Shown: positions 3,272 through 60,660 of the stretch, piece after piece
Layout of the letters: each line of letters starts with the position of its first letter
Numbering within the stretch: the first letter of the stretch is position 1
NCBI RefSeq assembly: GCF_053078305.1
Contig: NZ_CP166879.1
Direction: 5' to 3' (one strand)
DNA length: 64,000 nt
The notes under the pieces: model-generated
Told to the model about the DNA's origin: nothing
The model's input: only the letters and a program-made list of their open reading frames with translations
Databases searched by the model: none
Made by a program: the position numbers and the translations under genes

Positions 3272-3991
3272 TTATTCCCATGCATGAGGCGCAAAAAGAT
3301 AGCCTTTGTTACGCACAGTTTTAATGCGATAAGGTTCTGCGGCGTTATCGAGCAGTTTTTTTCTTAACCGCGAAATAGCCACGTCCACGCTACGATCCAG
3401 TCCGTCATAACTGACGCCGCGTAAATTTTTCAGCAATGCATCGCGGTCCATGATTTGCCCGGCATGGGTAGCTAATTCCCACAATAATTCGAAATCAGCT
3501 GTCGAGAGCGAGATTTCAGTGTTAGCCAGGGTGACTACGCGGTTGATGGGATCGATGGTCAACGTGCCGAAATGCAGGGCTTTGTAGGGAGTCAGAGACG
3601 TTTCCTGAAGACCTTTGGTCAGTGTGGCTTGCTCATTCTGACGCAAATGCAAACGTAAACGCGCTAACAAAACAGCAGGGGGCGTCGTTTTGAGAATATA
3701 GTCGCAGGCACCCATTTCCAGTGCCAGGATATGGTTCATATCGCTATCGAGAGAGGTTAGAAGAACAATCGGTCCGGACCACTTTGCGCGTAAATCACGA
3801 CAAATGGTCATGCCGTCCTTGCCTGGTAGCATGATGTCGAGTAACACCAAATCCGGATTTTCTCGCAAAATGGTTTCTTCGGCCTGGTCGCCGCGCGGCT
3901 CTACGGTAACCTGCATATCATGTTTTGCCAGGTACGCGGCAATCAGTGAACCGACTTCCGCATCATCTTCCACAAATACGATAGTGTTCAT
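3272..3991 (-). CDS. rstA: Response regulator RstA (OmpR family)
   Basis: Translation MNTIVFVEDD... with receiver and winged-helix domains; track ORF trimmed by 20 codons to the ATG at 3989-3991. Confidence 0.9.
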   Translation of the reverse strand: MNTIVFVEDDAEVGSLIAAYLAKHDMQVTVEPRGDQAEETILRENPDLVLLDIMLPGKDGMTICRDLRAKWSGPIVLLTSLDSDMNHILALEMGACDYILKTTPPAVLLARLRLHLRQNEQATLTKGLQETSLTPYKALHFGTLTIDPINRVVTLANTEISLSTADFELLWELATHAGQIMDRDALLKNLRGVSYDGLDRSVDVAISRLRKKLLDNAAEPYRIKTVRNKGYLFAPHAWE

Positions 3992-4119
3992 AACATTCAC
4001 GGTAGATATAAAAACGTCACAATACACCGCGCTGTTTTTACTTACTATCAATCGTTTCTAAACAAGTTTTCATCAGGTATTCTACTGATGACTTGTTATG
4101 GAAGTGTTAAGGTAAAAAG

Positions 4120-4455
4120 ATGGGGCTGGTAATCAAAGCCGCGCTCGGTGCGCTGGTAGTGCTGTTGATTGGTGTTTTAGCAAAAACGAAAAATTATTAT
4201 ATCGCCGGGCTGATTCCACTTTTCCCGACCTTTGCGCTCATCGCGCATTATATTGTTGCCAGCGAACGTGGCATCGAAGCCTTGCGTGCAACCATCATTT
4301 TTAGCATGTGGTCGATTATTCCCTATTTTGTTTACCTGGTGTCACTGTGGTATTTCACCGGAATGATGCGCTTACCCGCTGCTTTTGTTGGTTCTGTTGC
4401 GTGTTGGGGGATAAGCGCATGGGTGTTGATTATATGCTGGATAAAGCTGCATTAA
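4120..4455 (+). CDS. ydgC: Inner membrane protein YdgC (GlpM family)
   Basis: 111-aa hydrophobic ORF between rstA and folM, matching K-12 gene order. Confidence 0.8.
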   Translation: MGLVIKAALGALVVLLIGVLAKTKNYYIAGLIPLFPTFALIAHYIVASERGIEALRATIIFSMWSIIPYFVYLVSLWYFTGMMRLPAAFVGSVACWGISAWVLIICWIKLH

Positions 4456-5174
4456 CGCAGATGACGACCGCCATCAAGTGGGAAACTGCGTCCGGTGACA
4501 AAGCAACTGGTAAGTAAGTAATCGACCAGGTCGATCACTTCTTTCTCGCCAGGCGCGGTTTTCATCAGTGATTTATTCAGCGCCTGTTGTCGATATTCGG
4601 CATCATCATGTTCATTAAACAGGATCAGCGATGGCGCAATAGAATTCACTTTCACTTCCGGTGCCAGCTTGCGGGCAAACGAGCGGGTCATATTATCCAG
4701 TGCCGCTTTGCTTGCAGCATACGCAATATGCTTGTCGCTACCGCGCTCCACCACATAATCGGTAAAGTGAATGATATCGCTGGCGGCGTGTCCGTGCCCA
4801 CGCAGTAATCTTTCCAGCGCATGGTTGAGCAGGTATGGGGTATTAACGTGGATCTGCATCATGCAAGCCAGTACGTCGGCCAGTGGCGCACCCGGTTTTT
4901 CCGCCATCCACGCACTGGCGTTATGCAAAATAGCACGCAGACCATGGGTGCTTTTTAGTACTTCATCGGCAAACGCCATCACACCGTCGTTGGTCGAAAA
5001 ATCAGCCTGAATACACTGCGCACCTGCATTAATCAGTCCATCAATGGCTGGATAGTGTGTCCGATAGCTGACAATCACCGGTTGCTTTTGATTAATGAAA
5101 TGCCATGCAAGGGCGAGGCCGATGCGACGACCTCCGCCAGTAATTAATATTGGCAAGGGCTGGGTTTTACCCAT
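4452..5174 (-). CDS. folM: Dihydromonapterin reductase FolM (short-chain dehydrogenase)
   Basis: 240-aa ORF with N-terminal TGGGRRIG dinucleotide-binding motif and YxxxK active-site pattern; synteny. Confidence 0.85.
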   Translation of the reverse strand: MGKTQPLPILITGGGRRIGLALAWHFINQKQPVIVSYRTHYPAIDGLINAGAQCIQADFSTNDGVMAFADEVLKSTHGLRAILHNASAWMAEKPGAPLADVLACMMQIHVNTPYLLNHALERLLRGHGHAASDIIHFTDYVVERGSDKHIAYAASKAALDNMTRSFARKLAPEVKVNSIAPSLILFNEHDDAEYRQQALNKSLMKTAPGEKEVIDLVDYLLTSCFVTGRSFPLDGGRHLR

Positions 5175-46643: not shown

Positions 46644-46961
46644 TCAGGATATTACCTGGATCCCGTTTTTCTCGACAACTGAAAGAAGCCGAAGAGCTGC
46701 ACCTCCCGGGCGTTTCACTCCTCGTTCCCAGTCTGATATCAGGTTTTTACTGACGTTGAGGTATCTGGCAAAAACAGGTTGAGACAGATGCTCTCGTTCT
46801 CGCAGTGCACGGATCCTTTCTGGAGACATTACCGGCGCAGGCTGAAGACAAGTTTCATCGAATTCGCGCATAGTTTGTTTTGTGATTGCACCGATATCAT
46901 GGAGTGACTCCATCATTTCATGTACAGATGCAAGTGCATCACTGCGGTAATTTTTACTCAT
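46644..46961 (-). CDS. HTH (XRE family) antitoxin, HigA-like
   Basis: 105-aa ORF with C-terminal HTH (LSQPVFARYLNVSKNLISDWERG); overlaps the upstream toxin gene by 8 nt. Confidence 0.55.
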   Translation of the reverse strand: MSKNYRSDALASVHEMMESLHDIGAITKQTMREFDETCLQPAPVMSPERIRALREREHLSQPVFARYLNVSKNLISDWERGVKRPGGAALRLLSVVEKNGIQVIS

Positions 46962-47325
46962 TGGGTACCTCCGTGAACTGGCCTTGTTGAATCAATTGTG
47001 CCAGCTGTTCATCAGTAAGATTGAGGACATGGGGAGCGGCTTTTCGAAAAGCATTTTCCTCTATAGCAGTGATATTCTCTCGTTCATTCTTTGCGTATGC
47101 GTAGATGAAAAAGGCTTTTTCTGCAACGCGGTAAAAAATTATTGTCCGGTAACCGCCTGATTTTCCGCCACCACTTCGGGCTAATCTTTGTTTAATGACA
47201 CCACTACCCAAATTTGCGGATATGATCCCCTTATCGGCCAGCTCCACGATTTTGCGCAGCGATTTATCGGAAATCCGATGTTTTCGGGCGAAACGTTCAA
47301 ACCAGGCGTTTTTGAAAATTCGCAT
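46954..47325 (-). CDS. RelE/ParE-superfamily toxin, HigB-like
   Basis: 123-aa ORF with GGGKSGGYRTIIFY segment; toxin-first order typical of higBA. Confidence 0.5.
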   Translation of the reverse strand: MRIFKNAWFERFARKHRISDKSLRKIVELADKGIISANLGSGVIKQRLARSGGGKSGGYRTIIFYRVAEKAFFIYAYAKNERENITAIEENAFRKAAPHVLNLTDEQLAQLIQQGQFTEVPNE

Positions 47326-50658: not shown

Positions 50659-51717
50659 ATGCTTAATACTGTAAAAATATCCAGTTGTGAGTTAATCAAC
50701 GCCGACTGCCTGGCATTTATCCGGTCGTTACCCGAAAATTCTGTTGACCTGATAGTCACGGACCCGCCGTACTTTAAAGTGAAGCCTGAGGGCTGGGATA
50801 ACCAGTGGAAGGGCGACGATGATTACCTGAAGTGGCTGGACCAGTGTCTTGCGCAGTTCTGGCGGGTGCTGAAACCTGCCGGAAGTCTTTACCTGTTCTG
50901 TGGCCATCGCCTGGCATCTGATATCGAAATCATGATGCGTGAACGCTTCAGTGTGCTGAACCATATTATCTGGGCAAAGCCGTCCGGACGCTGGAACGGG
51001 TGCAACAAGGAAAGCCTGAGGGCGTATTTCCCCGCCACAGAGCGCATTCTGTTCGCGGAACATTATCAGGGGCCGTATCGTCCGAAAGATGCCGGGTATG
51101 AGGCGAAGGGCAGGGCACTGAAACAGCATGTGATGGCCCCGCTGATTGCTTACTTTCGTGATGCGCGTGCTGCCCTGGGGATAACGGCAAAACAGATTGT
51201 GGATGCCACAGGAAAGAAAAACATGGTGTCGCACTGGTTCAGTGCCAGTCAGTGGCAGCTACCGAACGAAAGCGATTATCTGAAATTACAGGCGCTGTTT
51301 GCCCGGGTGGCAGAAGAGAAGCATCAGCGCGGTGAACTGGAAAAGCCCCACCACCAGCTGCTGGAGACGTATACTTCACTGAACCGGCAGTATGCGGAAC
51401 TGCAGAGTGAATATAAGCATCTGCGGCGGTATTTTGGCGTGACGGCGCAGGTGCCGTACACCGATGTGTGGACGCATAAACCGGTGCAGTACTATCCCGG
51501 GAAACATCCGTGCGAAAAACCGGCAGAAATGCTGCAGCAGATAATCAGCGCGAGCAGTCGTCCGGGGGACCTGGTTGCAGATTTTTTCATGGGGTCGGGT
51601 TCGACAGTCAAAGCCGCGATGGCGCTGGGGCGTCGTGCAACTGGCGTTGAGCTGGAGACTGAACGTTTTGAGCAGACGGTCAGGGAAGTACAGGATTTAG
51701 CCAGTCAGAACGGATGA
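50659..51717 (+). CDS. DNA methyltransferase (N6-adenine/N4-cytosine, DPPY type)
   Basis: N-terminal LIVTDPPYF and C-terminal FFMGSGST motifs; 352 aa with a long insert between them. Confidence 0.8.
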   Translation: MLNTVKISSCELINADCLAFIRSLPENSVDLIVTDPPYFKVKPEGWDNQWKGDDDYLKWLDQCLAQFWRVLKPAGSLYLFCGHRLASDIEIMMRERFSVLNHIIWAKPSGRWNGCNKESLRAYFPATERILFAEHYQGPYRPKDAGYEAKGRALKQHVMAPLIAYFRDARAALGITAKQIVDATGKKNMVSHWFSASQWQLPNESDYLKLQALFARVAEEKHQRGELEKPHHQLLETYTSLNRQYAELQSEYKHLRRYFGVTAQVPYTDVWTHKPVQYYPGKHPCEKPAEMLQQIISASSRPGDLVADFFMGSGSTVKAAMALGRRATGVELETERFEQTVREVQDLASQNG

Positions 51718-51757: not shown

Positions 51758-51833
51758 GGCCCTTTAGCTCAGTGGTGAGAGCGAGCGACTCATAATCGCC
51801 AGGTCGCTGGTTCAAATCCAGCAAGGGCCACCA
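51758..51833 (+). tRNA. tRNA with CAU anticodon, ileX-like (tRNA-Ile2 lysidine type)
   Basis: Cloverleaf GGCCCTTTAGCTCAGTGGTGAGAGC...ACTCATAATCG...GGTTCAAATCC...AAGGGCCACCA; close to E. coli ileX. Confidence 0.75.
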
Positions 51834-51842
51834 TATCACATA

Positions 51843-51919
51843 CCGCCATTAGCTCATCGGGACAGAGCGTCAGCCTTCGAAGCTGGTTGCGCGGGGTTCG
51901 AGTCCTCGATGGCGGTCCA
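51843..51919 (+). tRNA. tRNA-Arg (anticodon TCG)
   Basis: Acceptor stem CCGCCAT/ATGGCGG, anticodon loop CTTCGAA, T-loop GGTTCGAGTCC, 3' CCA. Confidence 0.7.
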
Positions 51920-51932
51920 TTATCGGTATTCA

Positions 51933-52009
51933 GCGTTGTTAGCTCAGCCGGACAGAGCAATTGCCTTCTAAGCAATCGGTCACTGGTTCGAATCCAGTAC
52001 AACGCGCCA
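51933..52009 (+). tRNA. tRNA-Arg (anticodon TCT)
   Basis: Acceptor stem GCGTTGT/ACAACGC, anticodon loop CTTCTAA, T-loop GGTTCGAATCC, 3' CCA. Confidence 0.75.
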
Positions 52010-52178
52010 TACTTATTTTTCTGGCTCGCTTTTGCGGGCCTTTTTTGTATCCGCGCCACGCCCGGCGCATATCAACCACAGAGCCTTTCGGGGGTGAGCT
52101 TACGGAGTGGTCAGTGTGACTTTCTCTGTGGGCAGATCGCTCCCGGGCGTTGGCTCACCCACCCAAAGGAACGTCACG

Positions 52179-52610
52179 ATGTTTGGTATTTTCAAAAAGA
52201 AAACCCGCAGAGCAGCAACGGAAATTAAAAAGTTTGAGAAACGCGATCTGGCACAGGCGGTTATTAATGCTGCCTACCTGGTAGCCTATGCAGATGGTGA
52301 ATGTGAGGCTTCAGAGAAAGCGAAGATCGAACAGGTATTACGTAACCAGCCTGCGTTGTCCGCGTTTACGTCAGAAATTAATGCCATCAGTGCCACGATC
52401 ACAGGTCAGCTTGACACCAACTTTAAAATTGGTCGTCGAGCGGCGTTGCGTGAAATTGAAGATGTGAAACACGATACGCGTGAAGCGGAAGATGTGCTGG
52501 ATGTGGCGGTGGCTATTGCTGAAGCAGATGGTGAAATTGAGCCGGAAGAGCGTAAGGTTCTGGAAGAGATTGCAGGTGTTCTTGGCCTGCGACTGGAGAA
52601 CCACCTGTGA
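52179..52610 (+). CDS. TerB-domain protein
   Basis: Translation MFGIFKKKTRRAATEIKKFEKRDLAQAVINAAYLVAYADGECEASEKAKIEQVL...AIAEADGEIEPEERKVLEEIAGVLGL; AAAGGA SD upstream. Confidence 0.6.
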   Translation: MFGIFKKKTRRAATEIKKFEKRDLAQAVINAAYLVAYADGECEASEKAKIEQVLRNQPALSAFTSEINAISATITGQLDTNFKIGRRAALREIEDVKHDTREAEDVLDVAVAIAEADGEIEPEERKVLEEIAGVLGLRLENHL

Positions 52611-53072: not shown

Positions 53073-53408
53073 TTATGGACACTGTTGTTTTAGTCCGTAA
53101 GGGCATATTTGCAGAATGCAATGATTATTAAAGCATTCTTTCAATACGTTATCTGAATTTGCAGGACATTCCTGGCTGTTTTTGATTAAATCCCAGAATC
53201 TTTTATTGAATGGTACAACGTTGTAAATGGTTACAGGTAGCACTTTGTTATTAAGTACGATACCTGTGTGAGTCAACGTAAATATACTTTCAGGAGGTAA
53301 GAAAACATCCGATTGATACCAGATTATTAATTTTATTTTACTCCATATGGCTGAAAAAGATATTCCGCATGATGGCTGGATAACTGTATCAATCACAATC
53401 CACTTCAT
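53073..53408 (-). CDS. Hypothetical Cys-rich protein on an AT-rich antisense island
   Basis: 111-aa ORF with AAGGAGG SD 5 nt upstream of the ATG; seven Cys, five in the C-terminal third; region visibly AT-rich. Confidence 0.55.
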
Positions 53409-53661: not shown

Positions 53662-55629
53662 ATGGCATTTAAACACTACGATGTGGTCAGGGCGGCGTCG
53701 CCGTCAGACCTTGCGGAGCGACTGACTCAAAAACTGAAGGAGGGGTGGCAGCCATTTGGCAGTCCTGTCGCCATCACGCCTTATACCCTGATGCAGGCCA
53801 TTGCGGCGGAAGGTGATGTCACCACACCTGTGCTGGTGAAGCCGTCGGATGGAGAAGGCACAGTTATCAGCACCACCAGCGAACCGGAGTATTACTTTGT
53901 TGTTGTTCTGGCGGGGCAGTCAAACAGCATGGCATATGGTGAAGGCCTTCCGCTGCCGGAGACATATGACCGTCCGGACCCGCGTATTAAGCAGCTGGCG
54001 CGCCGCAGTACGGTGACACCGGGCGGTGCCGCCTGTAAGTATAACGACATTATTCCGGCGGACCATTGTCTGCATGATGTGCAGGACATGAGCCGTCTTA
54101 ACCATCCGAAAGCGAACCTGTCAAAGGGGCAGTACGGAACCGTGGGGCAGGGGCTGCATATCGGCAAAAAACTGCTGCCGTTTATACCGGCGAATGCGGG
54201 CATTCTGCTGGTTCCGTGCTGCCGTGGTGCTTCGGCATTCACAACGGGTGCAGACGGCACATACAGCGAATCAGCCGGTGCATCGGAAAATTCACTGCGC
54301 TGGGGTGTGGGTAAGCCGCTGTATCAGGATTTGGTGAGCCGGACTAAAGCCGCACTGGCGAAGAACCCGAAAAACCGTCTGCTTGCGGTGGTGTGGATGC
54401 AGGGAGAAGGTGATGCGGCAGTGGGGACGCATGCGCAGCATCCGGGGCTGTTTAGTGCGATGGTGAATCAGTTCAGAACGGAGCTTGCCGGTCTGGCATC
54501 ACAGAGCACAGGAGGCAGCGCATCAGCGGTACCGTGGATTTGCGGGGACACAACGTATTTCTGGAAGCAGCGTCATGCGGAAGGGTATGCATCAGTATAC
54601 GGAGGGTATAAGGGTAAGGAGTCGCAGAACATTTTCTTTGTACCGTTAATGACGGATGAGAATGGTGCGAATGTGCAGACCAATGACCCGGCAGAAGACC
54701 CGGACCTGGAAGCCGTCGGTTATTACGGTTCAAAGTGGCGTAATGACCAGAAGACCTGGACATCTGTGGACAGGGCAAGCCATTTCAGTTCATGGGCACG
54801 CCGTGGGATTATTTCCGACCGTCTGGCAACGGCGATTCTGGTGCATGCCGGGAGAACTGCTGAATTCATTACCGGAAAACAGCCTGATACGGTGAAGCCC
54901 ACCGGACCTTCCGGTGAAGGCCCGGAGAGAGAGCCGGAAGCCCCGGTCAGTAACCGAACCCTGATGAGTCTGCTGGCGTCCGGTGAAGACCTGGCATCAC
55001 AGGGCTGGCGCTATTATCACAAACCGGCGAGCGGAGACAATGTTGATAAAAACATCGCTGAGGCTGTGGTCAGTGATGAGGGTGCCACCGGTGGTAAGGC
55101 CCTGCAACTGAACAAACCGGAAAGCCACATCTGGTTTCTGGAGCATGATGCCGCCGGGCAGGGGGCAGAGTTGCTGAAGAAAGGCGGACGTGTGAGCGTA
55201 CGGTTTAAGGTGCCGGGCTCACTGGTGCCGAATCAGTTTGCCCTGGGTATTTACTGGCAGTTGTCGTCCCTGCCGGAGGGAGTGACGCTGGCAGAGGAAG
55301 GCAACGACATGCTGATGTCCTTCTTCCTGCAGACGGATGCGACGAACCTGAACGCGATGTACCACAAGAAGCAGAATGCGAAGCTGGATACGTTCGGGGT
55401 CTTTGATAACGGATGGCACACACTGGCTTTTGAGTTTGCCGGAAACAACAGCATTCAGGTGACGCCGGTACTGGATGAGAAACGGGGTACACCGTTCACA
55501 CTGGTGAAATCTCCGGCATCAGGGGCGGCGGACAAACTGCAACTGACAGGCATATCAAAGGCGGCGACATATACGTTGCTGATTGACAGTGTGAAGGTGG
55601 AAGTGAACAACGCGGACGCCGCGGCATGA
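53662..55629 (+). CDS. Prophage O-acetyl sialic acid esterase NanS-p-like protein (DUF1737 + SGNH/DUF303)
   Basis: About 655-aa ORF; N-terminal MAFKHYDVVRAASPSDLAERL... segment and VVVLAGQSNSMAYGEG esterase motif; located after the tRNAs and before the lysis genes as in Stx phages. Start could be the ATG at 53647. Confidence 0.7.
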   Translation: MAFKHYDVVRAASPSDLAERLTQKLKEGWQPFGSPVAITPYTLMQAIAAEGDVTTPVLVKPSDGEGTVISTTSEPEYYFVVVLAGQSNSMAYGEGLPLPETYDRPDPRIKQLARRSTVTPGGAACKYNDIIPADHCLHDVQDMSRLNHPKANLSKGQYGTVGQGLHIGKKLLPFIPANAGILLVPCCRGASAFTTGADGTYSESAGASENSLRWGVGKPLYQDLVSRTKAALAKNPKNRLLAVVWMQGEGDAAVGTHAQHPGLFSAMVNQFRTELAGLASQSTGGSASAVPWICGDTTYFWKQRHAEGYASVYGGYKGKESQNIFFVPLMTDENGANVQTNDPAEDPDLEAVGYYGSKWRNDQKTWTSVDRASHFSSWARRGIISDRLATAILVHAGRTAEFITGKQPDTVKPTGPSGEGPEREPEAPVSNRTLMSLLASGEDLASQGWRYYHKPASGDNVDKNIAEAVVSDEGATGGKALQLNKPESHIWFLEHDAAGQGAELLKKGGRVSVRFKVPGSLVPNQFALGIYWQLSSLPEGVTLAEEGNDMLMSFFLQTDATNLNAMYHKKQNAKLDTFGVFDNGWHTLAFEFAGNNSIQVTPVLDEKRGTPFTLVKSPASGAADKLQLTGISKAATYTLLIDSVKVEVNNADAAA

Positions 55630-55768
55630 TAAAAAGAGCCGCCAGCGGCAGGAATGGAAGCTGGCGGAGGTAATCCCAATGGAGAATGTAAAGAAAAGAT
55701 GCTTTCGTACATCGGTTGTTTTTTTAAATGAAAACAGTTCTCATTGTCAACCATAACGGTAAGAAATT

Positions 55769-55948
55769 ATGACATTTATTCATCAGGTGATGCTGTACTT
55801 CTGTACGGCGGTCTGTGTGCTGTATCTTCTTTCGGGTGGGTACAGGGCCGTGCGCGATTTCTGGCGCAGGCAGATTGATAAAAGGGCCGCAGAGAAAATC
55901 AGCGCCAGTCAGTCAGCCGGAAGCAAACCCGAAGAGCCGCTCATTTAG
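55769..55948 (+). CDS. Possible small membrane protein
   Basis: 59-codon ORF MTFIHQVMLYFCTAVCVLYLLSGG...; weak SD. Confidence 0.3.
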   Translation: MTFIHQVMLYFCTAVCVLYLLSGGYRAVRDFWRRQIDKRAAEKISASQSAGSKPEEPLI

Positions 55949-55988
55949 CTGCAACTTTCTTAACAACCATTTTCAACGAGAAAATCCC

Positions 55989-56234
55989 ATGTCAGAAATC
56001 ACATCCCTGGTCACTGCAGAGGCAGTGAAGGAAGTCCTGCGCTCTGAAGAAGTCCTGAGCGCACTGAAACAGAAACTCCGCCAGAACCTTGAGTCGCGTC
56101 TTGATGCAGAAGTGGATGCCATTCTGGATGAACTGCTGGGCGCACCGGCTGTTCCGGAGCCGGAAGGCATTGCGGGTGACGGGAGTGCTTCAGATGGCGG
56201 TGAACCCACACCCGACAGCGACATGATGATGTAA
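55989..56234 (+). CDS. Hypothetical acidic protein
   Basis: 81-aa [25 protein letters not shown]... upstream of the holin. Confidence 0.45.
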
Positions 56235-56310
56235 GCATGCGCAAGGGACCATCGGTGTGTGCCGGTGGTCTTTATATTGTTGTGAGCTTCCGGATTGCGG
56301 GAGACGGGGT

Positions 56311-56526
56311 ATGTACCAGATGGAAAAAATCACAACAGGTGTGTCATACACCACGTCAGCGGTGGGAACGGGCTACTGGTTCCTGCAGTTGCTGGACAGG
56401 GTTTCCCCGTCTCAGTGGGCGGCAATAGGCGTGCTGGGGAGTCTGCTGTTTGGTCTGCTGACATACCTGACGAACCTGTATTTTAAAATCAGAGAAGACC
56501 GGCGTAAGGCGGCCCGGGGAGAGTAA
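56311..56526 (+). CDS. Class II holin / pinholin (phage 21 S-like)
   Basis: Translation [71 protein letters not shown]; dual-start arrangement (ATG 56311 and 56320). Confidence 0.8.
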
Positions 56527-56530
56527 AGCG

Positions 56531-57517
56531 ATGAATAACAAATATGAACTGGTTGTAAAAGGGATAAATCATTACCCGGATAAGATAACTGTTACGGTGG
56601 CACTGGAAATTGCCGGTCAGCCGTCGTTGTTGTCGCCATATGTGGCGATTAGTCTTGACCGTACTGAAGGTGCCACGCTGGAATTTTACGAAGCTGAGGC
56701 GAAAAAACAGGCGAAGCAGTTTTTCATGGATGCGGCTCTCGGATTACGCGAAGGGACTGCGCGATGTGGCTTTCAGAATATTTCTTCATGGACAATGCCG
56801 GAAAAAATCGCCACTTACCCGGGGCGTGAAAAGGTCAACGAACCGGTAAAAAATGCGCCTGATGATGTGCAGAGCGCGATGGTTAATGTGGAGCTTCCGG
56901 CACGTGTGACACCAGGAGTGAAAGTCGGGGAAGATTCTCGTCTTGTGCTGACCAAAAGAATAGGCAGCGTGGTCAGTGTTCATATTGATCATGAGGAAGT
57001 TCTGTCGGTTATGTACAGGGAAGACTACGATCCGAAAACAACATTCAGCGACTATGAAGCGAGAGCAAAGGAGTATGCCTTGTCGGTATTTGCTGCGGTA
57101 CGTGGCGAGGACTGTCGTAAAAACGGGCATGAAAGTGATTTTACTGTGCCTGTGTCGGACAAAAACCAGGAACGGGAGTGTAACCGGCCATCCTTTGTTG
57201 TATCCGGTGATGACGGGAAAATCACCATATCAGAAAATGGAAAAGTAACACCGCCATCGCACCAGCACAGTGAGACGCTCATTGAATTTGCCATTGATTA
57301 CCTGAAGAACAATAAAAAACAGGGGCTGATGAAGCGCATTGGTCGCTGCATGGGATATCTGCAGCTGGCGGCAGAGATTGAAGCACTTGCCAGTGGTGCA
57401 GACAGGGATGCTGCGGTGCGGGAGGCTCTTCTTTGTGATTTCAATACGCCACCCTTTAAGAAAGAGCCTGATGGCTGGATCCAGCCGGGGCTGACTTATC
57501 TTAAAGTGCGTATTTAG
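56531..57517 (+). CDS. Hypothetical 328-aa protein inserted between holin and endolysin
   Basis: Uninterrupted ORF starting 5 nt after the holin stop; no signal peptide and no motif recognised. Confidence 0.6.
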   Translation: MNNKYELVVKGINHYPDKITVTVALEIAGQPSLLSPYVAISLDRTEGATLEFYEAEAKKQAKQFFMDAALGLREGTARCGFQNISSWTMPEKIATYPGREKVNEPVKNAPDDVQSAMVNVELPARVTPGVKVGEDSRLVLTKRIGSVVSVHIDHEEVLSVMYREDYDPKTTFSDYEARAKEYALSVFAAVRGEDCRKNGHESDFTVPVSDKNQERECNRPSFVVSGDDGKITISENGKVTPPSHQHSETLIEFAIDYLKNNKKQGLMKRIGRCMGYLQLAAEIEALASGADRDAAVREALLCDFNTPPFKKEPDGWIQPGLTYLKVRI

Positions 57518-57553
57518 TGGGCCAGGGACAGCGGCTGAATATTTAATATATAC

Positions 57554-58087
57554 ATGAACGCAAAAATCAAATACGGCCTGTCAGCTGCTGTTCTGGCGCT
57601 GATTGCCGCAGGTGCGCCTGCGCCTGAAATCCTCGACCAGTTTCTTGACGAAAAAGAAGGTAACCACAGCACGGCATACCGTGATGGTGCGGGTATCTGG
57701 ACCATCTGCCGTGGTGCCACCCGGGTGGATGGTAAGCCTGTCGTCCCTGGCATGAAGCTGTCGAAGGAAAAATGCGACCAGGTTAACGCCATTGAACGTG
57801 ATAAGGCGCTGGCATGGGTGGCGAAAAACATCAAAGTGCCACTGACTGAACCCCAGAAAGCGGGGATCGCGTCATTCTGTCCTTACAACATTGGCCCAGG
57901 TAAGTGTTTCCCGTCGACGTTTTATAAACGAATTAATGCAGGCGATCGCAGGGGAGCGTGTGAGGCGATTCGCTGGTGGATTAAGGACGGTGGCAGAGAC
58001 TGCCGTATTCGCTCAAATAACTGTTACGGTCAGGTATCCCGGAGAGACCAGGAGAGCGCGCTGGCGTGCTGGGAAATCGACAGATAA
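57554..58087 (+). CDS. SAR endolysin (T4-lysozyme-type, phage 21 R-like)
   Basis: N-terminal signal-anchor-release segment LSAAVLALIAAGA and catalytic E...D...T pattern (EGNHSTAYRDGAGIWTICRG). Confidence 0.85.
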   Translation: MNAKIKYGLSAAVLALIAAGAPAPEILDQFLDEKEGNHSTAYRDGAGIWTICRGATRVDGKPVVPGMKLSKEKCDQVNAIERDKALAWVAKNIKVPLTEPQKAGIASFCPYNIGPGKCFPSTFYKRINAGDRRGACEAIRWWIKDGGRDCRIRSNNCYGQVSRRDQESALACWEIDR

Positions 58088-58243
58088 GCAGAATATTTTG
58101 CTGAAAAATGAGGTTTGCTTACATGGACGGATAACACGAAATCCTGCGAACTGGCAAAATGTAAGTGAATAAAAGTAAAAACCCCGTTTGTTGGCAGCAA
58201 GCGGGGTTTTGTGTTTCTGACCTTGGATAAGGCAAGGGAGAAC

Positions 58244-58426
58244 ATGGAAAAGTATAAACGAATTCTGTTGAGGTTGACTATGAAAAACGGCCTTGAACTG
58301 AAAGCGCCAGTAACTGATGACATCAGCAGAGCACTGGCTTTTGCTATTAAGTGGGTGGCGGTCGGTATCGCTGTGTCTCCGATGCTGTATGGGCTGGCAA
58401 AACTGGTCATTGCGTTGAAATCGTGA
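58244..58426 (+). CDS. Hypothetical small membrane protein
   Basis: 60-aa ORF MEKYKRILLRLTMKNG... with C-terminal hydrophobic helix; GGGAGA SD upstream. Confidence 0.4.
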   Translation: MEKYKRILLRLTMKNGLELKAPVTDDISRALAFAIKWVAVGIAVSPMLYGLAKLVIALKS

Positions 58427-58440
58427 AGGGAGGATTAAAC

Positions 58441-58572
58441 ATGTCAGACAAACTCATAATGCTGGCGAAGATCCTCTGTGTAATCGTCGGCATTTCATTT
58501 TCACTAATGCTGGTTGCTATTTGCTTTTCCACTGCCTGGCGCGTCTTAACTCTGTCAGGGCTGGTGGGGTGA
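58441..58572 (+). CDS. Hypothetical small membrane protein
   Basis: 43-aa ORF MSDKLIMLAKILCVIVGISFSLMLVAICFSTAWRVLTLSGLVG; GGGAGG SD upstream. Confidence 0.45.
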   Translation: MSDKLIMLAKILCVIVGISFSLMLVAICFSTAWRVLTLSGLVG

Positions 58573-58579
58573 CAGAAAC

Positions 58580-59515
58580 ATGAAATGTGTACTGTATTCC
58601 GGTGACTGTCTTGATGTTATGCCTTCATTACTACCGGGAAGTGTTGACCTGGTTTTATGTGACCCGCCGTATGGAACCATTAAAGGGCTTACACTCCGTA
58701 CATGGGATAAGAGTACGACAGCATGGGACGATGCCTTAAATCCTGAAGATATTTTCACACAGTGCGAACGACTGCTGAGGGTGGGCGGTGTGCTGGTCAT
58801 GTTCAGCCAGGAGCCGCATACAAGCACGATGATTACTCTGGCGGATAAAAACCTGCCGTTTTTATATCGTATGGTGTGGAAGAAGGAGCATTTCCCCAAC
58901 CCGCTTTCAGTAAAAAAAGCACCTGTATCTTTATTCGAGGATATCGTTGTTTTCCGGAAAAAATATGACAGTGAGAAAAACCACCCGCTGAGGGAGTACG
59001 CCCGAAATATCCTTTCTTTCATTGGCCACAGGACAGACAAGGAAGTTAACAAAACACTGGGGCACTGTCGGGCAGAGCATTTTTTTCGCGTGAACACAGT
59101 CCAGTTTTCCCTCTGCTCACAGGATACGTACAACGAGTTAATTAAACGCTTTGGTATCGACCGTATGCCGGGTTTCATGACATATGAAGAAATGTGCAAA
59201 GTGAATTCCGGTTACGGCACTGTGGTTTTTAATCTCCCTCAGGGGAAAAAATACCGCGCAAATATTCTGGAGTACGCGCGGGAGCGGGAGCGATGGCATC
59301 CGACCCAGAAGCCAGTTGCATTACTGGAAGAGCTGATTCAGACGTACAGCAACCCTGGCGACAGGGTACTGGATTTTACTATGGGGAGTGGTTCAACAGG
59401 TGTTGCATGTATCCGGACGGGGAGACGGTTTACCGGAATAGAAAAGGATGACCGGTATTTCGCTGTTGCAAAAAAACGTCTGGAAAAAGAAAACAGTGAA
59501 ATGGTGGTGATATGA
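58580..59515 (+). CDS. DNA methyltransferase (DPPY type), second copy, inserted between endolysin and Rz
   Basis: N-terminal LVLCDPPYG and C-terminal FTMGSGSTG motifs; stop overlaps the Rz start. Confidence 0.8.
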
Positions 59516-59979
59516 ACCGTGTTCTGTGTGTGGTGATTATTGTCCTGCTGGTGGCCTGTGGTGCGCTTAGTCTGGGGCTGAATCATTACCGCGATAACGC
59601 CATCACCTACAAAGCGCAGCGCGATAAAAAAGCCAGAGAGCTGGAGCTGGCAAACGCAACCATTACTGATATGCAGCAGCGCCAGCGCGATGTTGCTGCG
59701 CTCGATGCTAAATACTCGAGGGAATTAGCCGATGCGAGAGCTGAAAATGAAACTCTGCGTGCTGATGTTGCCGCTGGTCGTAAGCGCCTGCGGGTTAAAG
59801 CCACCTGTCCAGGCTCCGTGCGTGAAGCCCCCACCACCTCCGGCGTGGATAATGCAACCGGCCCCCGACTGGCAGACACCGCTGAACGGGATTATTTCAT
59901 CCTCAGAGAACGGTTGATGACAATGCAGAAGCAGCTGGAAGGGGCGAAGGAATATATCCGCACTCAGTGTATTAACTAG
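59512..59979 (+). CDS. Spanin inner-membrane subunit Rz
   Basis: 155-aa ORF with N-terminal TM helix and coiled-coil periplasmic domain; contains Rz1 in the +1 frame. Confidence 0.75.
59732..59917 (+). CDS. Spanin outer-membrane lipoprotein Rz1 (embedded in Rz)
   Basis: Lipobox LVVSAC followed by the proline-rich [27 protein letters not shown] segment, as in lambda Rz1. Confidence 0.65.
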
Positions 59980-60002
59980 TATTTTTGTTATCCGGAGAAT
60001 GC

Positions 60003-60227
60003 ATGAAGAAATTACTGGTAACCGTAAAGCCTTTTCAGGGAACAATTCCGTTCCGTATTTTGCAGTGTGGTCGTGTTCTTGTTGAAGGTTCGTTCAGTGG
60101 TAAATGTACGCAATTACACTCCCGGACCTTTCAGGTGAATGCCACGAATGAAGAGCTAACCGTTGAGTGTACGATGAATGCAGCTAAATGCCGCATGGTA
60201 TCGGCTGCATTACAGCCAGTGTGTTGA
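60003..60227 (+). CDS. Hypothetical Cys-containing small protein
   Basis: 74-aa ORF MKKLLVTVKPFQG...; GGAG SD upstream. Confidence 0.4.
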   Translation: MKKLLVTVKPFQGTIPFRILQCGRVLVEGSFSGKCTQLHSRTFQVNATNEELTVECTMNAAKCRMVSAALQPVC

Positions 60228-60469
60228 GCGACCTTATTATCCATGCGCGGTATTGTCGCCGTATTCCTGCATTAACAGAGACCGCAGCCCGACAGGGAGA
60301 CTCCTCTGCGCGAGTGTGCGGGGATAATCAAAAACGATACACACCGGGGTTTACCGCGTTAACGGAGCGCGGCGTTGTCCCCTCATGGTCGCTGGTCCGG
60401 TGCGATGGTGGAAGAAACTGGATTTTGTTGCAACTGATAATCATTATCATTTTCTCGGGTCCTTTCCGG

Positions 60470-60660
60470 CATATGGACCCGTTACGGGGCGGCGACCTCG
60501 CGGATTTTCACTATTTATGAAAATTTTCCGGGATCCATGTCCGGTTTCTCTGCAAGTTAACCATATGAAAAATATAAAAACATGCTTTCCATGAACCGGA
60601 CATGCGCAAAAAATAGACACTAAAACCGGACATGACCGGTTTTGTTGTGATTGTGAGGTG
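60470..60660 (+). other. cos site (cosN with lambda-identical 12-nt cohesive-end sequence, plus cosB-like R sites)
   Basis: GGGCGGCGACCT at 60487-60498 followed by CGCGGATTTTCACTATTTATGAAAATTTTCCGG, near-identical to the lambda genome ends; three CCGGACATG-type motifs at 60536, 60596 and 60626. Confidence 0.8.

Follow-up and report, generated by a model that had tools for sequence, protein, structure and literature searches.

A long mosaic member of the DUF1327/YdfR family in the holin-endolysin slot of a lambdoid prophage

The holin and endolysin genes of lambda and phage 21 are adjacent. In the prophage analysed here, an ORF of 328 aa is located between the two, which raises the question of what this gene is, how its product is built and what the product might do there. 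The window examined is the whole stretch of 64,000 nucleotides (NCBI RefSeq assembly GCF_053078305.1, contig NZ_CP166879.1), and the relevant features of its lysis cassette are the following.

56311..56526, + strand: class II (S21-type) holin, 71 aa (phrog_9876, E 2e-40; phrog_20, E 5e-34)
56516-56523, + strand: Shine-Dalgarno-like GGGGAGAG within the holin 3' end (sequence; alignment of the 933W and BP-4795 junctions)
56531..57517, + strand: YdfR-family ORF, 328 aa, stop codon included, ATG start (full-length match to phrog_1085, E 5e-115)
57518..57553, + strand: 36-nt spacer between the 328-aa ORF and the endolysin (sequence; alignment with BP-4795 and 933W)
57554..58087, + strand: SAR-type endolysin (lysozyme), 177 aa (phrog_7 endolysin, E 3e-62)

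The placement of the ORF described in an earlier, sequence-only reading of this DNA proved exact on both sides, with the ATG beginning at the fifth nucleotide after the holin stop and 36 nt lying between the ORF and the endolysin. The holin stop is a TAA ending at 56526, which leaves 4 nt (56527-56530) before the ATG, and the ORF closes with a TAG at 57515-57517 in both the ORF list and the raw sequence. The holin begins with MYQM, a dual-start motif comprising Met1 and Met4 that is typical for S21-type pinholins, and its homologues of equal length are named 'class II holin family protein' in RefSeq. The endolysin has a hydrophobic, Ala/Gly-rich N-terminus, its homologues are labelled 'lysozyme' or rrrQ in RefSeq, and the spacer in front of it is AT-rich, with no clear Shine-Dalgarno beside the endolysin ATG. 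Flanking direct repeats, sought around the 328-aa gene as an insertion signature, were not found, nor were any Rfam families within 55000-60500.

The ORF has hundreds of homologues, and its comparison with three intact 328-aa copies from complete E. coli genomes gave dN/dS values of 0.23-0.27; it is therefore more than a chance reading frame, being a genuine, intact gene that is under purifying selection. The maximum Kyte-Doolittle mean over 19 residues is 1.05 and the N-terminus is not hydrophobic, so the protein carries neither a TM segment nor a signal peptide, just as the first reading had stated, and with a pI of 5.7 the product is predicted to be soluble, acidic and cytoplasmic. No enzymatic, NTPase, nuclease or membrane domain was recognisable in it with Pfam and NCBIfam, the NCBIfam search yielding nothing above noise. 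As for membership of a lysis family, the protein was found to have no TM segment, lipobox or signal sequence and to match no PHROG lysis family, all nine of its PHROG matches being of 'unknown function'.

The gene had been described as unrecognised, a description that has to be dropped, given that DUF1327 (PF07041) matches residues 1-74 of the protein (E 8.2e-32; positions 1-74 of the 93 in the model) and that relatives already bear the RefSeq names 'YdfR family protein' or 'DUF1327 domain-containing protein'. K-12 YdfR is 43% identical to it across 74 aa (BLASTP, E 1e-17), while the closest database protein (P0001), also of 328 aa, is 96% identical and is called 'DUF1327 domain-containing protein' by NCBI; the exact sequence was absent from a collection of 15 billion proteins. 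A phmmer search of 1.84 billion representatives returned only 63 relatives, and the confident Foldseek matches in AFDB50 were exclusively uncharacterised proteins of E. coli, Shigella, Salmonella, Citrobacter, E. fergusonii and Rosenbergiella. The YdfR family is thus small and restricted to Enterobacteriaceae. The Pfam match, the homology to YdfR and the position in a lysis cassette all place the 328-aa protein in DUF1327, and there is good support for regarding its gene as a long, three-module mosaic allele of the DUF1327/YdfR family. Good support also exists for the family itself being an accessory gene of lambdoid Enterobacteriaceae prophages that lies in, or just upstream of, pinholin/SAR-endolysin cassettes.

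To describe how the protein is built, an AlphaFold2 (AF2) model was used, with a mean pLDDT of 68.7 and a pTM of 0.36. Each row of the underlying alignment combined genuine modules from homologues with query sequence as padding, and the M module was covered by only ~10 homologues. Two other alignments, one made with plain MAFFT from full-length homologues and one from separate domain pieces, had the mosaic middle out of register, and neither was used for AF2. The protein is predicted to consist of three ordered modules joined by two disordered linkers, as given below.

56531..56764, + strand: N module, aa 1-78, DUF1327 (Pfam; identity to YdfR; AF2 pLDDT about 70-86)
56765..56878, + strand: linker 1, aa 79-116, predicted disordered (AF2 pLDDT <50 over aa 73-116)
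56879..57106, + strand: M module, aa ~117-192, strand-rich with a helix at 172-190 (AF2 pLDDT 66-74)
57107..57175, + strand: linker 2, aa 193-215, predicted disordered (AF2 pLDDT <50)
57176..57514, + strand: C module, aa ~216-328, three short strands and four helices (AF2 pLDDT 80-93)

In the model, the N module is laid out as strands at 5-14, 18-27 and 37-43 followed by a helix at 50-71. A conserved patch of this module is E46-G47..L50-E51.Y53. The profiles of the N and M modules align with each other (hhalign probability 64%, E 6.7e-5, 53 columns), and the M module is probably a diverged repeat of the N module, while the corresponding N-vs-C and M-vs-C comparisons by hhalign were not significant. 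In four relatives (P0091, P0110, P0168 and P0173), the M module follows directly after the N module alone. Close and distant N modules are still related by hhalign (probability 91%, E 9e-7), and the N+C architecture is retained in relatives at merely ~20-40% identity. The strand-strand-strand-helix order brought a HicB-like fold into consideration, which was rejected, as the N, M and C profiles reached hhalign probabilities of at most 0.2% against two HicB_lk_antitox proteins; Pfam likewise gave no HicB match in the 328-aa protein.

The C module belongs to no Pfam family, and no fold relative of it was found, yet it carries a set of conserved residues, namely His246, Gly271-Arg272, Leu277-Gln278, Pro308, Lys310, Trp316, Pro319-Gly320 and Tyr323-Leu324. 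All proteins retrieved with its profile were unnamed ones from Enterobacteriaceae, none of them fused to a known domain, and the relatives were without a Pfam assignment except for one partial protein with DUF1327. The module measures ~110 aa and is also encoded on its own, in a gene of 185-213 aa at the same slot. It represents a conserved, previously undescribed domain, whereas the locus as a whole adds a rare mosaic allele to a known family. The most conserved stretch of the module, aa 266-282 (window ~57326-57376), reads MKRIGRCMGYLQLAAEI, and across the family it follows the pattern L/M-K-R-L/I-G-R-x-M-G-L/Y-L-Q-V-A-A-E-I. Among PDB profile matches (hmmsearch), the best for the C module was 8tch_A, a 580-aa 'pathogenicity island protein', over 24 residues; this match rests on a short LGRxxxLLQV motif with an E of 0.12 and is probably due to chance, although no other sequence lead emerged for the domain.

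With these modules defined, the gene can be compared with occupants of the same slot elsewhere. In the K-12 Qin prophage, essQ (a 71-aa class II holin) is followed after 4 nt by ydfR (b1555), which overlaps rrrQ (lysozyme), so that the slot is the same as here. YdfR has a homologous N-terminal domain and the same soluble, acidic character, but its 103 aa comprise only the N module and a short helical tail, lacking the M module, the C module and both linkers. BP-4795 harbors another YdfR relative in this slot (ORF47). The Stx2 phage 86 protein gp05 (268 aa) and E. coli 'YdfR family' proteins of 287-333 aa also occupy the slot and have the N and C modules, with an overall identity of 54-56% and a coiled-coil-like middle (...RIEKLE..ELKK...) in place of the M module. 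Stand-alone 'hypothetical proteins' of 185-213 aa, encoded at the same slot in O157 and other prophages (for example WP_001015158.1), have a C module 80-97% identical to ours; they lack DUF1327 and begin with a coiled-coil-like segment 3 nt past the holin stop. The states of the slot therefore range from empty (933W) through N-only (K-12 YdfR and BP-4795 ORF47, the latter of 114 aa) and C-only (185-213 aa, starting 3 nt past the holin stop, as in O157 strain FDAARGOS_293) to N plus variable middle plus C (268-333 aa), with a split copy in CE10.

A survey of related prophages, which the sequence-only reading had suggested as a check, was carried out and revealed that presence of the insert at the holin-endolysin junction is polymorphic. 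The phage collection was searched with the holin-ORF-endolysin stretch; 60 of the 359 matching records were sampled and 53 of these 60 contained both flanking genes. The two genes are directly adjacent, as in 933W, in 39 of the 53 (span about 754 bp, ranging from 726 to 754), while 11 have a short insert (span ~1,145 bp) and three have a long insert (spans of 1,750-2,050 bp). Holin and endolysin genes that are >90% identical at the DNA level abut in 933W and many Stx2a phages, and since such near-identical flanks enclose no insert there, the slot is a present/absent polymorphism and the accessory nature ascribed to the gene is confirmed. By megablast, DNA of the 328-aa ORF was detected in 1,337 of 5,426 complete E. 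coli genomes, only seven of which cover ≥80% of the ORF and thus carry the N-M-C mosaic, and in at least 48 of 60 sampled best-match E. coli genome records the slot, or the place next to it, is taken by a YdfR-type gene or a hypothetical one. The earlier premise of a normally uninterrupted holin-endolysin pair accordingly applies to 933W, as it does to lambda and phage 21, and not to E. coli prophages generally, of which the essQ-ydfR-rrrQ order of Qin is an example, and an insert at this position can no longer be called unusual. As the YdfR family usually fills the slot, the 328-aa gene is a fairly ordinary accessory gene. The first reading had also named, as a finding that would count against it, a conserved and characterised lysis accessory in many related phages; the gene is indeed conserved across many related phages, but it is not characterised. 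In sum, the family is widespread and uncharacterised, and the 328-aa member is a rare mosaic allele of it.

Distant YdfR relatives are sited between Q and the holin, with other genes intervening before the holin, and even where they are not between holin and lysozyme the relatives always lie near a class II holin and a SAR-type lysozyme. In two such loci (L009, 5639-6945; L008, 1089-2377), the YdfR-like gene is overlapped by a preceding DUF4406 (nucleoside deoxyribosyltransferase-like) gene, and a HicA/HicB pair is located on the opposite strand just after Q.

Intact homologues of 328 aa were found as uninterrupted ORFs at L001 7001-7987 and at 3501-4487 in both L004 and L005. The RefSeq annotation (PGAP) calls all three 225-nt pseudogene fragments, 'incomplete; missing C-terminus', probably because the naming model spans the DUF1327 part alone; these pseudogene flags on copies with 328 intact codons are wrong. 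The dN/dS lies at 0.2-0.27 in both the N and the C modules, with 0.20-0.25 in the C module. Among four genomes, the M module shows no nucleotide differences and the central 137 codons show 0-1, compared with a C-module dS of 0.2-0.44 among the four 328-aa copies, and the middle cassette therefore owes its recent spread to recombination. The M module behaves as a mobile cassette, and the N, M and C modules recombine across the strongly mosaic family.

Mosaicism of this kind, in which a central cassette identical in four genomes with differing flanks points to spread by recombination, would also suit a dispensable, decaying filler that persists through hitch-hiking and inter-prophage recombination and contributes nothing to phage or host here. 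Empty holin-endolysin junctions are common, truncated (BP-4795 ORF47, K-12 YdfR) and split (CE10) forms are frequent, and the many copies of the latter kinds are as expected for a dispensable gene. Nevertheless, we consider this explanation unlikely, because the four copies are intact over 328 codons and retain the low dN/dS in the N and C modules, relatives at only ~20-40% identity still combine N with C, and conservation of the C-module motifs is sharp.

When the gene is expressed bears on what it might do. No sigma-70-like promoter was detected on the + strand within 55600-60200, and together with the ATG lying 4 nt after the holin stop this upholds the earlier proposal that the gene is co-expressed with the late lysis operon. 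It is well supported that the gene would be read from the Q-dependent late transcript without a promoter of its own. In 933W, the endolysin ATG is located 4 nt after the holin stop, behind the same GGGGAGAG and at the position held here by the DUF1327 ATG, whereas in the occupied slot both the leader of the endolysin, which is AT-rich there, and the first codons of the endolysin gene are different. The junction alignment indicates that GGGGAGAG is the putative ribosome-binding site of the DUF1327 ORF here and of the endolysin in 933W. With a late transcript, a ribosome-binding site in the holin 3' end and no own promoter, the 328-aa protein would be made solely late in lytic growth.

This arrangement invites the explanation that the product is a cytoplasmic regulator of lysis timing, which would bind the pinholin tail or the unexported SAR endolysin, or whose gene would displace the endolysin from its ribosome-binding site. 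Besides lying inside the cassette, the gene is linked to the holin at the level of translation, its relatives keep company with class II holins and SAR-type lysozymes throughout, and its insertion shifts the endolysin from GGGGAGAG to an AT-rich leader without an obvious Shine-Dalgarno; a soluble regulator encoded beside the holin also has a precedent in LydB of phage P1. However, the same holin and endolysin function without the 328-aa gene in 933W-type phages, and distant homologues lie upstream of the holin with other genes in between. The lack of a TM segment and of any PHROG 'lysis' family among the nine matches also speaks against such a role, and the mosaic middle and frequent truncations are unlike a tuned regulator, which makes a lysis-timing function improbable.

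The sequence-only reading had instead suggested cargo for defence or superinfection exclusion, which would shield the lysogen or the infected cell from other phages. Present/absent polymorphism at a known moron-type position, strong mosaicism with module shuffling as in arms-race genes, and other accessory cargo nearby in the prophage (methyltransferases, an IraM-like gene and a TA-like pair) would all fit. Against it, PADLOC-DB v2 gave no family at E ≤ 1, and none of the enzymatic, NTPase, nuclease or membrane domains was recognisable. The absence of a promoter of its own within 55600-60200 also means that no obvious expression in the lysogen is expected, and K-12 ydfR is transcriptionally nearly silent in standard growth, with almost no RNA-seq reads (PMC13232886). 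The suggestion is not supported, and we regard a defensive role as quite improbable.

A further lead comes from the only functional data on YdfR that the literature search yielded (PMC13232886). In the bacterial two-hybrid assays of that study, residues 1-72 of YdfR scored positive with both RNase E and RNase G, while full-length YdfR did so with Rne(1-597) only (PMC13232886). Strep-YdfR co-purified RNase E(1-598), and its eluate contained DNase-resistant nucleic acid, although according to the authors the RNA might have been bound by a contaminant; overproduction of YdfR hardly changed the transcriptome (PMC13232886).

On this basis, the 328-aa protein may be a late cytoplasmic adaptor that places DUF1327 on RNase E or RNA, adds a separate activity in the C module and alters RNA decay, a reading that we favour over the others, though tentatively and by analogy with YdfR. 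Such an adaptor would resemble beads on a string, in which the N module, and perhaps the M module too, would attach to RNA and/or to the N-terminal, catalytic half of RNase E, while the C module would hold a second, independent activity or a partner-binding site. The net outcome would be that RNAs such as the long transcript of the lysis and virion genes decay differently late in infection, and the lysis machinery itself would be left untouched. The layout of the 328-aa protein is adaptor-like, with ordered modules, disordered linkers and a predicted cytoplasmic location (AF2, hydropathy), and the likeness of M to N, the independent occurrence of the modules and the purifying selection on N and C also fit. 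Several observations weigh against the adaptor. The RNase E data come from the 103-aa YdfR, which is 43% identical, rather than from the 328-aa protein, and they include the weak effect of overproduction, the restricted signal of full-length YdfR and the possible contaminant. The N module is acidic (pI 5.2), unlike typical dsRBDs, and its profile matched nothing in the PDB. C-only alleles are common, and the activity of the C module, whatever it may be, therefore does not depend on the putative DUF1327 docking module. The many split or truncated copies and the padded AF2 alignment with its thin coverage of M also count against it.

Other proteins are known to act on the same part of the enzyme. 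The phage T4 protein Srd binds the N-terminal half of RNase E. The host protein RapZ binds this half as well, together with RNA (PMC13232886). Both offer a possible functional analogy only, no sequence or fold relationship between either of them and the 328-aa protein having been found.

The structural comparison touches on the RNA side of the adaptor reading. The top two Foldseek matches in the PDB were the tandem-dsRBD proteins Loqs-PB and TARBP2, over 188-197 columns spanning the N and M modules, though with E values of 0.016-0.017 and TM-scores of 0.13-0.21 these matches are not significant. Both proteins have repeated strand-strand-strand-helix units on flexible linkers, as are predicted in N and M, but the first helix of a dsRBD is absent from the N and M modules, where AF2 places three strands and then a helix. 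A dsRBD assignment by sequence was rejected, there being no Pfam dsrm match, no match of the N-module profile in the PDB at E ≤ 10 and an N module with a pI of 5.2. It is conceivable, albeit doubtful, that the YdfR family as a whole, the three-module form included, represents a so far undescribed class of phage late proteins that dock on the catalytic half of host RNase E through degenerate dsRBD-like repeats and whose C domain reprograms RNA decay before lysis.

If the RNase E lead holds, the family would provide a new route by which temperate phages reach host RNA decay late in infection, and in Stx-type prophages the amount of late mRNA, and hence of toxin and virions, could shift. In Stx-type phages the gene is part of the late operon, beside the genes for toxin and virion release. 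STEC prophages abound in members of the YdfR family, which is among the commonest unexplained genes of E. coli prophages; megablast detected DNA of the 328-aa ORF in about one quarter of complete genomes, often in multiple copies.

Several other features of the prophage were observed. The host prophage appears to be a stx-less member of the Stx-phage type. A tRNA trio (Met-CAT, Arg-TCG and Arg-TCT) is followed by a 167-aa ORF rather than by stx (window 51758-52610), and in the related locus L005 a trio of this kind is annotated immediately ahead of stx2g; the 167-aa ORF has a weak match to TerB-like DjlA (E 1e-6), far under the curated cut-off. A 111-aa ORF on the - strand (53073-53408) matches the anti-adapter IraM family (157 bits against an NCBIfam cut-off of 121, E 1e-46) and is carried as prophage cargo just upstream of a nanS-p-like esterase gene; by acting as an anti-adaptor of RssB, IraM stabilises RpoS. 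Overlapping ORFs of 123 and 105 aa at 46644-47325 (- strand) resemble a toxin-antitoxin pair, of which the downstream ORF has weak HTH/MqsA-type antitoxin matches (E 3e-8, under the cut-off) and the upstream ORF has no NCBIfam match.

A second insertion in the lysis cassette occupies the endolysin-Rz interval (window 58178-59515), a position that in related phages contains ant or nothing. It starts with a hairpin with 16-nt arms (58178-58210), after which come overlapping small ORFs with hydrophobic stretches at 58211-58426 (phrog_1115) and 58351-58572 (phrog_4906), and then a 311-aa adenine-type DNA methyltransferase at 58580-59515 (phrog_67), the end of which overlaps the start of Rz at 59512. 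A 352-aa adenine-type DNA methyltransferase with a DPPY motif is encoded at 50659-51717, with the Q-region genes on one side and the tRNA cluster on the other, so that together with the one at 58580-59515 the prophage carries two orphan methyltransferases.
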